From the NCBI GenBank assembly GCA_046536795.1, contig JAWDMB010000003.1, positions 35,645 through 99,644 on the forward strand: 64,000 bases of DNA, written 5' to 3'. The stretch is from Candidatus Micrarchaeota archaeon. GTDB lineage: Archaea > Micrarchaeota > Micrarchaeia > Micrarchaeales > CABMGC01. Positions 15,191 to 60,905 of this stretch are shown piece by piece. How positions within the stretch are numbered: position 1 is the first letter of the stretch; every line of letters begins with the position of its first letter. A program made the translations under genes and the position numbers. A model generated the notes under the pieces. That model made no database searches and was not told where the DNA came from. It worked only from the letters and a program-made list of their open reading frames with translations.

Positions 15191-15895
15191 ATGCAACATA
15201 AAAATAAATATATGCAAGCTAGAGCCGAGAAAAAGGCAAGGAGTAATGCTAATACAGAATATGCAAAGAAGGTTTTAGACAAGCTCATTGAACACTATGG
15301 CGAGCAGCATACTGCACTTATCTACAAAAATCCAATGCAGCTCTTTGTCGCTGTATTGCTTTCACCGCAGAATTCTGATGCCCAGGTTAACAGAGTTACA
15401 AAAAATCTTTTTGATAAATATAAAAGCTTTGAAGATATTGCGAATGCTAAGATAAAAGAGCTAGAAAAAGATTTGTCGAGCCTTAACTTCTACAAAACAA
15501 AAGCGAAGCACCTCAAAGAAAGTGCAAAGATAATGATTGAAAGATATAATGGCAAAGTTCCAAAAAGTATTAATGAGCTCATAATTCTTCCAGGAGTAGG
15601 TAGGAAGGTTGCAAACGTTGTTCTAAACGAGCTCTACAATATAAATGAAGGTATAGCTGTTGATACCCATTGCATTACAGTAGCGAATAGGTTGGGATTT
15701 GCAAAAAGCAAAAAAGCAGAAGTTGTTGAAAAAGAGCTAATGAAAAAAATACCTAAGAAGTACTGGGGACTTGTTTCAAACCTCTTTATTGCGCTTGGGC
15801 GCGATACGTGTAAGGCAAGAAATAAAGAATGCTATAGGTGCGTACTAAAAGATATATGCCCTAGCAGCACCGAAAAAGAAAAGAAAAAAGATTAA
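15191..15895 (+). CDS. nth: Endonuclease III
   Basis: HhH motif LPGVGRKVA, AVDTH, C-terminal CKARNKECYRCVLKDICP 4Fe-4S motif; start uncertain (15191 or 15212). Confidence 0.93.
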   Translation: MQHKNKYMQARAEKKARSNANTEYAKKVLDKLIEHYGEQHTALIYKNPMQLFVAVLLSPQNSDAQVNRVTKNLFDKYKSFEDIANAKIKELEKDLSSLNFYKTKAKHLKESAKIMIERYNGKVPKSINELIILPGVGRKVANVVLNELYNINEGIAVDTHCITVANRLGFAKSKKAEVVEKELMKKIPKKYWGLVSNLFIALGRDTCKARNKECYRCVLKDICPSSTEKEKKKD

Positions 15896-18165
15896 GAGCA
15901 TTTGCTATAGCCGCATACCGGACATGTCGCGCATCCCTCGCCTACTATCATAAGCGCACCGCATTCTGGGCATCTCTCACCTCCTGTATACTCCTCTAAC
16001 TGGAAGCCCTGCGCCTCTACTTTTATCTCTTCTAGAGTTTTGCTTGTAATCTCTTCTTTCTCCTTGTGCAGCTTTGCTACATCTTCTAATTTTCTTTGAT
16101 TAGTGTCAACAGTTGTAAGAACTTGCCTGCTCTTGCTCTTATCTCTATATATTGTTATGCCCTTGCAACCGAGCTTGTATGCAAGCATATAAGCCTCTTC
16201 TACATCCTGCGGTGTTGCGTAGCTTGGCATGTTTATTGTCTTTGATACGGCGTTATCAACATATTTCTGGAACGCAGCTTGCATTTTCACATGCCACTCA
16301 GGCGAGACATCAAAAGCTGTTACAAATAGCCTTCTAATCTCCTTAGGTATTTCTTCTACGTCTTGTATAGAGGTTCTCCCAGCAAGCTTCTTCATGAGGG
16401 CATCGCTATAGAAACCATATTTTAATGCAAACTCCTCGAACACGTTGTTTACCTCTATAAGGTCTGTACCTATGCTTGAGCTAACGTTTCTTTTGTATAC
16501 TACAGCGAAGAGCGGCTCTATGCTTGGTGATGCGCCACCAGCTATTATGCTTATAGTACCTGTAGGGGCTATGGTTGTTACTGTAGAGTTTCTTAGAGGC
16601 TTGTAGCCGAATTTATACCATATACTGTTTTCCCACTCAGGGAATGGACCTCTTACCTTAGCAAGCTCAGCGCTCTCCTCCCTAGCTTCGTCTCTTATGA
16701 ACTTCATAACCTTTTCAGCGAGATATAGTGCTTCGTTTGAATCATATGGTATACCGAGCTTTATGAGCATGTCAGCCCAACCCATAACGCCAAGACCAAC
16801 ACGCCTTATTGCTCTAGTTACCTGTTCTATCTGTGGCAGAGGAAAGTTGTTTGCATCAATCACATCATCTAGGAACCTTATCGCAAGTCTTGTTGTATAT
16901 CTCAACTTATCCCAGTCGATCTCGTACTTTCCGTTTTTCTCTTTCAGCATGCGTGATAGGTTTATTGAACCAAGATTGCACGAATCAAAAGGATAAAGTG
17001 GCTGTTCTCCGCACGGATTGGTAGATTCTATAGGACCATACTTCGGAACCGGATTTGAGTATGTTGAATTCATCCTATCTATAAATATAACTCCCGGATC
17101 CCCTGTTCTCCATGCCATTGTAGTCATTAGATTCCAAACCACTCTTGCACTTAGCTTTCCAACTTCTTTGTTGTTCCTTGGATTTATTAGGCTATATTCC
17201 TCACCACGCTGCAATGCATCCATAAATGCATCTGTAACAGCAACGCTTATATTGAAGTTTTCTAAAACACCTTCTTTTTCCTTAGCTACTATAAAATTGA
17301 GTATGTCTGGGTGGTCAACTCTAAGTACACCCATGTTTGCGCCCCTTCTTTTGCCACCCTGCTTTATTTGCTCTGTTGCTGCATCGAAGACCTTCATGAA
17401 AGATATCGGACCAGAGGCAACACCGCCTGTGCTTCTTACTATATCGCCACTAGGCCTGAGCCTCGAAAAAGAAAAGCCTGTACCACCACCAGATTGGTGG
17501 ACAAGCGCAGCCCACTTGACGGCATCAAATATCTCTGCTATTGAATCCCCAACAGGCAATACGAAACATGCACTTAGCTGGCCAAGCCTAGTACCTGCAT
17601 TCATCAATGTAGGGCTGTTCGGCATAAATTCAAATCTAGTCATAACATTGTAGTACTCGTTTGCAAGCTTTGCTATCTCTTCCTCGCTCACACCGTATCT
17701 AGATTCTACGCCAGCTATGGTGTTGGCAACCCTTGTGAAGAGCTGCTTTGGTGTCTCTATAATCTTGCCTTCTTCATTTTTTAGCAGATACCTAGCAGCA
17801 AGCACAACGAGAGAATTCAAAGGAAGCTTAAGATCATCGACTACACCAAGTGAAGCTTTATAAGCCCTTATCTCTGCATGCTTGTTTCTATATATAATGT
17901 ATGCCTTAGCTGTCTTCTGGTCGACGCTCATGAGCACCTGCTCTACAATGTCTTGTATCTCCTCCACATGCACCTTCTCTTTTCCAAGCTCCACAAGCTT
18001 CTGCACAACAAGATTTGCATACTCGCTTGCCTTACTCATTAACTCCTCATCGCTCATGCTGCCATCGTATACTTCCCTCATAGCCTTGCTTATTGCTATT
18101 GCTATCTTCTGCTTGTCGAAAGGAACAACAGATCCATCCCTCTTAACAACTTCTTTCACCTCCAT
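15892..18165 (-). CDS. nrdJ: Class II (AdoCbl-dependent) ribonucleotide reductase with N-terminal ATP cone
   Basis: ATP cone (VVKRDGSVVPFDKQKI), PNSPTLMNAG, SACFV, TNPCGEQP, RRVGLGVMG, TIAPTGTIS, C-terminal CPECG...CGYSKC. Confidence 0.95.
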   Translation of the reverse strand: MEVKEVVKRDGSVVPFDKQKIAIAISKAMREVYDGSMSDEELMSKASEYANLVVQKLVELGKEKVHVEEIQDIVEQVLMSVDQKTAKAYIIYRNKHAEIRAYKASLGVVDDLKLPLNSLVVLAARYLLKNEEGKIIETPKQLFTRVANTIAGVESRYGVSEEEIAKLANEYYNVMTRFEFMPNSPTLMNAGTRLGQLSACFVLPVGDSIAEIFDAVKWAALVHQSGGGTGFSFSRLRPSGDIVRSTGGVASGPISFMKVFDAATEQIKQGGKRRGANMGVLRVDHPDILNFIVAKEKEGVLENFNISVAVTDAFMDALQRGEEYSLINPRNNKEVGKLSARVVWNLMTTMAWRTGDPGVIFIDRMNSTYSNPVPKYGPIESTNPCGEQPLYPFDSCNLGSINLSRMLKEKNGKYEIDWDKLRYTTRLAIRFLDDVIDANNFPLPQIEQVTRAIRRVGLGVMGWADMLIKLGIPYDSNEALYLAEKVMKFIRDEAREESAELAKVRGPFPEWENSIWYKFGYKPLRNSTVTTIAPTGTISIIAGGASPSIEPLFAVVYKRNVSSSIGTDLIEVNNVFEEFALKYGFYSDALMKKLAGRTSIQDVEEIPKEIRRLFVTAFDVSPEWHVKMQAAFQKYVDNAVSKTINMPSYATPQDVEEAYMLAYKLGCKGITIYRDKSKSRQVLTTVDTNQRKLEDVAKLHKEKEEITSKTLEEIKVEAQGFQLEEYTGGERCPECGALMIVGEGCATCPVCGYSKCS

Positions 18166-18173
18166 AAAAACAC

Positions 18174-18635
18174 CTAAGCATTCCTCTTATTCTTAAGCAT
18201 CATCGCAATCTTTCTAAACTGGTCTGGCGAGTCAAAATTGTTGTATACACTTGCAAACCTAATGTAAGCTACCGGATCAAGTTTGTAAAGTTCACTCATC
18301 ACCATCTCACCTATCTTTCTGCTTGTTACCTCCTTCTTGTTTTGCGATATAAGCTTTCTCTCTATCTTCTCAGCGATCTCTTCCATTCTCTCTCTGCTTA
18401 TAGGCCTCTTTTCGCACGCCTTCATAATGCCATTAAGCACCTTGTTTCTATCAAATGGCTCCCTGTTGCCATTTTTCTTTATCACTGTTATCTGCATTGT
18501 ATAAACGCGCTCATAGGTTGTAAACCTTCTTTTGCATGCATCGCAAACCCTTCTGCGCCTTATGCTGTTATCTGATGCAACAAACCTTGAATCTATCACA
18601 TGTGTTTTATTTGAACCGCAGTAAGGGCAGTGCAT
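18174..18635 (-). CDS. nrdR: Transcriptional repressor NrdR
   Basis: MHCPYCG...VIDSR...RRRRVCDACKRRFTTYER zinc ribbon plus ATP cone (VIKKNG.REPFDRNK) and DPVAYIRFASVY. Confidence 0.96.
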   Translation of the reverse strand: MHCPYCGSNKTHVIDSRFVASDNSIRRRRVCDACKRRFTTYERVYTMQITVIKKNGNREPFDRNKVLNGIMKACEKRPISRERMEEIAEKIERKLISQNKKEVTSRKIGEMVMSELYKLDPVAYIRFASVYNNFDSPDQFRKIAMMLKNKRNA

Positions 18636-18639
18636 ACCA

Positions 18640-18687
18640 TCACAACATATAGTATTTTAATCATACTAAAAATACAATATTTAGTAT
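18640..18687. promoter_or_regulatory. Two tandem NrdR boxes
   Basis: TCACAACATATAGTAT (18640-18655) and ATACAATATTTAGTAT (18672-18687) both fit the consensus acaCwAtATaTwGtgt; starts are 32 bp apart, directly upstream of nrdR. Confidence 0.82.
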
Positions 18688-18799
18688 ATTTATTTAAATA
18701 TCAATGCTTTCAAAAAGGAAAATGAGGTTAACTTTTTGTAGCATATTTATTTAAATATTAATCGCTTTCAAAAGGAAAACGAGATTATTTTTTGTAGCA
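18687..18799. repeat. Imperfect tandem duplication, 57 bp + 56 bp, each copy containing a TATA-like TATTTAAATA
   Basis: 18687-18743 tatttatttaaatatcaatgctttcaaaaaggaaaatgaggttaactttttgtagca versus 18744-18799 tatttatttaaatattaatcgctttcaaaaggaaaacgagattattttttgtagca. Confidence 0.88.
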
Positions 18800-18830
18800 G
18801 ACTTTACAAATGTTGAAAAAGGTAAAAAGA

Positions 18831-28668: not shown

Positions 28669-28776
28669 AGCCCTGAGAGGGGATTGAACCCTCGACCTCC
28701 TGTTTTCCCGTTTCTTGATTAAACTTCTTCTTAAGAAGTTTACAAGACAGGCGCTCTACCACTGAGCTACCAGGGC
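28669..28776 (-). tRNA. tRNA-Thr(TGT) with 36-nt intron (28705-28740) at 37/38
   Basis: Reverse complement reads GCCCTGG...CCTGT-CT-TGT-A[intron]A-ACAGG...GAGGG-TTCAATC-CCCTC-TCAGGGC-T; U73 discriminator; BHB central helix CUUG/CGGG. Confidence 0.92.
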
Positions 28777-60784: not shown

Positions 60785-60905
60785 GGCGGGGTAGCTCAGG
60801 TGGTTAGAGCGCTAGACTCATAGGCAAAGCCTTATGAGTGATGAGCCTTTAGGCTATGATTGCTAAGAAATCTAGAGGTCGCGTGTTCGAATCCCGCCCC
60901 CGCCA
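60785..60905 (+). tRNA. tRNA-Met(CAT), probably elongator, with 47-nt intron (60823-60869)
   Basis: GGCGGGG/CCCCGCC acceptor stem (G1-C72), CTAGA-CTCATA[intron]A-TCTAG anticodon arm; BHB-like outer helix GCAA/TTGC; one T-stem mismatch. Ile2 identity is not fully excluded. Confidence 0.88.
60823..60869 (+). ncRNA. Candidate intron-encoded box C/D-type guide for tRNA-Met C34
   Basis: TATGAGT is antisense to the anticodon loop, followed by ATGA (D-like), the AGCCT/AGGCT hairpin and ATGATT (C-like). Confidence 0.55.

Follow-up and report, generated by a model that had tools for sequence, protein, structure and literature searches.

A 64,000-nucleotide (nt) stretch of DNA from a Candidatus Micrarchaeota archaeon (NCBI GenBank assembly GCA_046536795.1, contig JAWDMB010000003.1, positions 35,645–99,644 of the forward strand; we refer to this whole stretch as the window) carries nrdR, the gene for the repressor NrdR, followed closely by nrdJ, which encodes a class II ribonucleotide reductase (RNR). 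We consider it very likely that these two genes make up a functional, autoregulated operon of this archaeon, a member of the Micrarchaeia within DPANN. Both genes are what they appear to be, the operator in front of them has the sequence and geometry of an NrdR operator and is unique in the genome, and it is conserved among relatives, where it occurs strictly together with nrdR. The operon and its control region, all on the reverse strand and given in the direction of transcription with positions of the window, consist of the following features:

18691–18698, reverse strand: proximal TATA box, TTTAAATA, ending 3 bp before NrdR box 1
18672–18687, reverse strand: NrdR box 1, ATACTAAATATTGTAT, between the TATA box and the predicted start site; matrix score 16.5, third-ranked site in the genome
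18668–18670, reverse strand: predicted start of nrdR-nrdJ transcription, from the genome-wide TATA distance applied to the TATA box at 18698
18656–18671, reverse strand: linker between the two boxes, 16 bp, conserved in length and not in sequence
18640–18655, reverse strand: NrdR box 2, ATACTATATGTTGTGA, in the 5' leader, ending 4 nt before the nrdR ATG; matrix score 17.6, second-ranked site in the genome
18174–18635, reverse strand: nrdR, encoding a 153-amino-acid (aa) repressor with a Zn-ribbon (C3, C6, C31, C34) and an ATP-cone
18171–18175, reverse strand: AGGTG, resembling a Shine-Dalgarno sequence; it overlaps the nrdR stop codon and precedes the nrdJ ATG by 5 nt
15892–18165, reverse strand: nrdJ, encoding a class II (adenosylcobalamin-dependent) RNR of 757 aa

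The first-pass annotation of this DNA, made from its letters, had read nrdR as a complete gene lying 8 bp upstream of a B12-dependent class II RNR gene, and both parts of that reading hold. The NrdR protein scores 188.8 bits on the NCBIfam equivalog TIGR00244 (cut-off 124.65) over model positions 1–142 of 147, and in Pfam it matches the Zn-ribbon domain PF22811 (Zn_ribbon_NrdR, 70.9 bits) followed by the ATP-cone domain PF03477 (90.6 bits). Among NrdR proteins in the PDB it matches 9FXK and 7P37 (E ~1e-36), the best match being 9FXK from Escherichia coli with 131.9 bits. In Streptomyces, D15 and R17 make base-specific DNA contacts, while R26–R29, R37, and R12 contact the backbone, and the ATP/dATP-binding residues of the NrdR-type ATP-cone are V48, K50, E56, F58, and K62 (PMC9110341). 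The base-reading D15 and R17, the RRRR motif (26–29), and R37 are all kept in the window protein relative to Streptomyces 7P37 and E. coli 9FXK; together with both CxxC motifs (C3, C6, C31, C34), they also show no variation across 14 aligned, mostly archaeal NrdRs. The nucleotide-binding residues are retained as V51, K53, E59, F61, and K65. With these residues, the protein is predicted to be capable of NrdR function.

The NrdJ protein scores above the cut-offs of NF006417 (989.7 bits; cut-off 961) and TIGR02504 (756 bits; cut-off 399.95). Its Pfam domains comprise an N-terminal ATP-cone of its own, Ribonuc_red_lgN, and Ribonuc_red_lgC; its C terminus ends in a CxxC...CxxC tail, and the catalytic-cysteine NPCGE loop is present in the translation as STNPCGEQP. 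A search of the genome (G000; 5 contigs, 759,833 bp, 94% completeness) gave this single match, making nrdJ the only RNR homologue found there. The nrdR stop codon and the nrdJ ATG are separated by an 8-nt gap, and the AGGTG motif that spans the stop codon fits translation of nrdJ from a bicistronic nrdR-nrdJ mRNA. The 3' end of the 16S rRNA, which we looked for in the assembly to judge Shine-Dalgarno motifs, was not found, so that what is said here of such motifs is inferred.

The two boxes closely resemble bacterial NrdR operators, as had been claimed at first pass. Both are 16 bp long and carry C4, A6, A8, T9, T11, and G13, the six positions at which bacterial boxes are strongly conserved and which matter for their function (PMC13584703). 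They start at −52 and −20 from the nrdR ATG, 32 bp or about three helical turns apart, and the 16-bp linker that this leaves between them falls within the canonical 15–16 bp (PMC13584703; PMC12051234). We then scanned the genome with a position weight matrix built from 32 boxes of 16 other genomes, the window's own genome being excluded. Box 2 and box 1 ranked second and third among all 16-mers of the 759,833-bp genome, and they form its only pair at a spacing of 30–33 bp. The weaker box of the pair scores 16.47, compared with a maximum of 10.57 and a mean of 5.1 in 40 genome-sized order-2 Markov simulations, where the statistic was likewise the score of the weaker box in a pair. A chance origin of the pair is excluded. 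The matrix scan had been put forward in the first-pass annotation as a check on the boxes; it leaves them unique in the genome and far above simulation. With one RNR homologue and one box pair in the genome, the predicted NrdR regulon is the nrdR-nrdJ operon alone.

Three other candidates or statistics were set aside in this analysis. The highest-scoring 16-mer of the genome (C2:25623, score 18.98) belongs to no pair at 30–33 bp. A null test on the sum of the two scores was dropped, as 1 of 20 simulated genomes reached 33.0, probably by combining one strong and one moderate site; the weaker-box score was used instead. The published regular expression for NrdR boxes, applied there to the upstream regions of bacterial RNR genes (PMC12051234), does match the operator (spacer 22, the "short" class), but it also gives 55 matches in the genome on both strands. 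It is unspecific in this AT-rich genome, and we therefore relied on the matrix.

Conservation was assessed in 37 genomes of the window's GTDB family and 24 genomes from other families of the order. NrdR scored above the cut-off in 27 of the 37 family genomes and in 0 of the 24 sampled from other families. One nrdR-positive genome (G010), in which the contig breaks off 183 nt from the RNR gene, was left out of the pair count. All 26 evaluable nrdR-positive family genomes have a box pair 31–32 bp apart before the RNR operon, whatever the gene order, while none of six nrdR-negative family genomes has any box in its RNR upstream regions (Fisher exact p = 8e-6 to 3e-5 with one or two positives counted as failures). 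Where nrdR comes first (n = 17, many genera), the two boxes stand at about −52 and −20, with a linker of 15–16 bp in 16 of these 17. In five genomes nrdR follows nrdJ directly or is its neighbor, and there the pair stands before nrdJ; in four others nrdR is unlinked, and the pair is found directly before the distant RNR gene. The boxes therefore track the RNR gene and are tied to nrdR being present, as a repressor-operator pair predicts, and their conservation in orthologous loci, on which the first-pass annotation had staked its claim, is borne out. Within the species, both boxes are invariant in five assemblies (the window and four others), and the linker differs by 3 substitutions between the window and the other four. 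Invariant boxes around a variable linker match the published pattern, in which linker length matters and linker sequence does not (PMC13584703).

These same data bear on whether the palindromes might serve some other factor, an mRNA structure, or translation, with archaeal NrdR being a protein that no longer binds DNA, for example only a nucleotide sensor. What speaks for this is that box 2 ends 4–8 nt before the ATG in most loci and that its 3' GTG(A/T/G) could double as a ribosome-binding element. However, the boxes are gone in 6 of 6 nrdR-negative relatives checked, they stay with the RNR gene where nrdR lies apart from it, and the DNA-reading D15, R17, and RRRR motif of the protein are invariant; moreover, two palindromes at three helical turns suit an NrdR tetramer and not an RNA hairpin. 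We regard such a role as very improbable. At first pass, box 2 had been placed over both the leader and a Shine-Dalgarno sequence: its position in the leader stands, and its overlap with a Shine-Dalgarno element is weakly supported.

Archaeal promoters have their TATA box about 23–30 bp upstream of the start. In this genome, TATA-like 7-mers (TTTAWAW) begin most often 28–30 nt before the first ATG of open reading frames (ORFs) of at least 200 aa, which suggests that many of its mRNAs are probably leaderless. This leaderless signature fixes the TATA-to-start distance of the genome. The nrdR TATA box, in contrast, begins 63 nt before the ATG, and the distance of 28–30 nt, counted from the TATA box at 18698, gives a predicted start at 18668–18670, just after box 1. 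Relative to this start, box 1 would span about −19 to −4, and box 2 about +14 to +29 of a leader of about 33 nt. The nrdR transcript would then be one of the genome's less common leadered transcripts, with the operator filling most of its leader. Of the promoter as first described, the TATA-like box is present, but it lies at 18691–18698 and not at about 18692–18701; the placement of box 1 between the TATA box and the start agrees with our calibration of TATA-to-ATG distances.

The 195-nt region between nrdR and the neighboring RNase HII gene holds further features, listed here together with that gene:

18682–18799, strand not assigned: 57-bp tandem duplication of the promoter core, 2.1 copies with 87% matches (Tandem Repeats Finder)
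18816–18828, reverse strand: two T5 tracts directly after the RNase HII stop codon
18831–19556, reverse strand: RNase HII gene upstream of nrdR (TIGR00729, 193 bits)

By this duplication a second, distal TATA box arises at 18748–18755, and no good NrdR box follows it. Four independent assemblies of the species share the duplication, and G002, a genome of the same genus, lacks it. The distal TATA box could serve as a second promoter, with a possible start at about 18725–18727, and its transcripts would have to cross the operator while NrdR is bound there. Archaeal RNA polymerase terminates at oligo-T, and the T5 tracts probably form an oligo-T terminator of the RNase HII gene, which would insulate the nrdR promoter.

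How might the operator work? We infer the start site, the dependence of binding on nucleotides, and the step of initiation that is blocked, drawing on the NrdRs of Streptomyces and E. coli. As the ratio of dATP to ATP goes up, NrdR carrying both nucleotides would form a tetramer, as its bacterial counterparts do, and the two Zn-ribbon pairs of this tetramer would bind both 16-bp boxes and kink the DNA. Bound NrdR would probably leave the TATA box free, though box 1 begins only 3 bp after it, and would cover the stretch to which TFB brings RNA polymerase and in which the strands separate. Both nrdR and the sole RNR gene would then cease to be transcribed until dATP drops. With the start placed just after box 1 by the genome-wide TATA-to-ATG distance, NrdR probably blocks the loading of RNA polymerase and not the binding of TBP. 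Several archaeal repressors leave the TATA box free in this way and block RNA polymerase loading; MDR1, LrpA, and Phr bind between the TATA box and the start and prevent the recruitment of RNA polymerase. Their operators sit where the NrdR operator does with respect to TATA box and start, so the blocked step is probably the same. These repressors are helix-turn-helix proteins unrelated to NrdR, whereas NrdR reads two boxes with Zn-ribbons and responds to ATP and dATP.

A different account of repression would be that bound NrdR acts mainly by competing with TBP/TFB, through a steric clash or kinking beside the TATA box, and not by preventing RNA polymerase recruitment. Indeed, TTTAAATA lies 2–5 bp upstream of box 1 in 13 of the 17 aligned nrdR-first promoters and exactly 3 bp upstream in 9 of them, and the kink of about 90 degrees that NrdR makes at each box (PMC9110341) could clash with the TBP-induced bend. 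Four loci from more distant genera (L002, L021, L026, and L027), on the other hand, have no TATA 8-mer within 5 bp of box 1: the TATA box is 14–15 bp upstream in L026 and L027, and L002 and L021 gave none in the scan. Close abutment is thus not required, and the boxes never overlap the TATA box itself. Competition with TBP/TFB is in our view rather unlikely, and we favor a block of RNA polymerase loading.

Several points weigh against the operon working as we propose. Because box 1 is only 3 bp past the TATA box in the window, NrdR might compete with TBP/TFB and not with RNA polymerase. The start site just after box 1 is a prediction from the genome-wide TATA-to-ATG distance. The distal TATA box, lacking an operator, could give transcription that is partly independent of NrdR. 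In the protein, Streptomyces R12, a phosphate/backbone contact, is replaced by H12 (K12 in E. coli). In the logo of 34 archaeal boxes, C4, A6, T11, and G13 are conserved at 100% and A8 and T9 at 88%, although the matrix boxes were picked by their likeness to the bacterial consensus, which makes the conservation at these six positions partly circular. Finally, the literature that we searched yielded no experimental study of archaeal NrdR.

The closest known counterpart is the nrdRJ operon of Streptomyces coelicolor (cryo-EM structures 7P37 and 7P3F; PMC9110341), where nrdR likewise precedes a class II RNR gene and is autoregulated, as is predicted here. Its operator, too, is a pair of partial palindromes of 16 bp, set about three helical turns from each other by a linker of 15–16 bp, and it overlaps the polymerase-binding region and the start site, as is predicted for the archaeal operon. 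The two NrdRs share the Zn-ribbon and ATP-cone, D15, R17, the RRRR motif, and the nucleotide-binding residues. They differ in the change of R12 to H12 and are only about 45–50% identical. The main difference lies in the promoter, which is of the sigma-70 type in S. coelicolor, whereas here it is an archaeal TATA promoter predicted to be read by TFB and single-repeat TBPs. In E. coli, the operators of nrdAB, nrdHIEF, and nrdDG (9FXK, 9FVR; PMC12176259, PMC13584703) have the same box consensus and require two boxes; there, however, nrdR is unlinked to RNR genes and controls three operons, while here one operon is the whole predicted regulon. Among archaea, nrdR directly upstream of RNR genes is seen in haloarchaeal nrdR-nrdAB operons of bacterial origin, which were listed in 2010 (PMC3019208). 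Those operons encode class I RNRs recently transferred from bacteria together with nrdR, and some are plasmid-borne; the operon described here encodes a class II RNR, and its NrdR belongs to a DPANN-wide clade.

The archaeal nature of the locus itself needs to be considered, since NrdR is mainly bacterial and one close homologue of the window's NrdR is labeled Saccharimonadales by NCBI, as one might expect if bacterial DNA had been misbinned or misassembled into an archaeal genome and nothing archaeal were involved. Against this, the 167-kb contig that contains the window also holds a TBP gene, found by a search that matches TBP in archaeal control genomes only, and nrdR is directly preceded by an RNase HII gene that matches TIGR00729. 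Two Rfam tRNA matches in the window, at 28669–28776 (reverse strand; 108 nt) and 60785–60905 (forward strand; 121 nt), were missed by ARAGORN in its bacterial mode and are probably intron-containing archaeal tRNAs. The TATA box stands at a distance typical of the genome, and the synteny RNase HII-nrdR-nrdJ, found in 4 independent assemblies, is shared with 26 related genomes. Near-identical NrdR homologues also carry the NCBI name Candidatus Micrarchaeia. On the strength of the TBP gene, the tRNA matches, and the synteny, we reject contamination, which we hold to be of negligible probability.

Two NCBI names among the homologues are at odds with their sequences. P0030, called "Marsarchaeota archaeon," does not differ in sequence from the NrdR of G014, a genome of the window's own GTDB family, and P0077, named "Saccharimonadales bacterium," is closely similar to the NrdR of G010. 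Both labels are probably binning or naming errors.

The TBPs of this lineage are of the single-repeat kind. The only TBP-domain genes in G000 are two unlinked ORFs of about 97–101 aa with a single TBP repeat each (loci L055 and L056), at C3:163260–163505 (reverse strand; outside the window) and C1:66442–66687 (forward strand), and a TBP search of the genome found no canonical two-repeat TBP. Across the order (41 genomes including the window's), nearly all TBP matches fall in frames of about 90–160 aa, usually two unlinked frames per genome; G006 is the only one of the 41 with two TBP repeats in one frame (191 aa). As the TBPs of the genome are single-repeat, the nrdR promoter would be read by half-size TBPs. 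In one keyword literature search, single TBP domains were addressed only by a 2013 paper on the evolution of TBP domains.

NrdR is not confined to the window's family. Of 301 genomes sampled from the phylum, 126 (42%), spread over many families, have an NrdR that passes the cut-off; published counts give 77% for bacterial genomes and 22% for archaeal ones (PMC13584703). The description of NrdR as predominantly bacterial, given at first pass, is hence right in that NrdR is mainly bacterial, and needs amending in that NrdR is not rare in archaea. We built a tree from 41 DPANN NrdRs (39 from this phylum, 1 from Nanobdellati, and 1 from Woesearchaeota) together with 77 NrdRs drawn from about a dozen bacterial phyla. 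All of the archaeal NrdRs fall on one side of a single branch (SH-aLRT 93), with one change of label, and support for the clade formed by the window's order is 99%. These results come from a short protein and a quick tree search, with a bacterial sample made up of best hits and with haloarchaeal NrdRs left out. In the Nanobdellati locus, nrdR is again followed by an RNR gene and stands behind a box pair and a TATA-like element. Because the DPANN NrdRs form one clade, apart from the 77 bacterial sequences, an old inherited system is favored over recent transfer, and the tree points to a DPANN NrdR that was inherited and repeatedly lost, with no recent graft. The first-pass annotation, which had suggested an NrdR phylogeny, spoke of a bacterial repressor-operator pair grafted onto an archaeal TBP/TFB promoter; the archaeal host, the operator, and the TATA box are there, and it is the word "grafted," with its hint of a recent transfer, that fits less well.

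In eight further genomes of the phylum (G136, G295, G216, G137, G233, G173, G174, and G110), a full-length NrdR match lies inside a frame of 816–1230 aa. There, NrdR appears to be fused to a large protein, presumably RNR.

A broader reading, which we put forward tentatively and with more doubt than confidence, is that the NrdR-operator pair is an old DPANN module, passed on largely by vertical descent and working unchanged on a promoter read by single-repeat TBPs. The mechanism of NrdR would then be independent of the basal machinery, relying on two kinked boxes that straddle the start, and in this species the need for transcripts from the distal TATA box to cross bound NrdR would add roadblock control.

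That archaea carry NrdR was already known, and the operon implies no new mechanism. What is new is the fixed position of the operator on an archaeal TATA promoter, together with a natural control in the comparison of nrdR-positive and nrdR-negative relatives. Work on NrdR has been confined to bacteria, in which it is under consideration as a target for antibacterials; for archaea the literature gives only its frequency. Published scans for NrdR boxes cover bacterial genomes only (PMC12051234). In the literature that we searched, no paper named both NrdR and DPANN lineages, and NrdR occurred together with "TATA box" or "TFB" only in a review of bacterial transcription factors. The locus and its relatives amount to a natural data set in which the same protein and operator occur at a fixed distance from the TATA box of a TATA/TFB promoter, and they make one question testable in vitro: does NrdR act purely by occupying and kinking the DNA around the start, whatever the polymerase? 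Beyond that, the finding leaves knowledge of NrdR and of archaeal regulation unchanged. For a DPANN archaeon with a genome of about 0.76 Mb and a single RNR, NrdR would probably be the main control of deoxynucleoside triphosphate supply.

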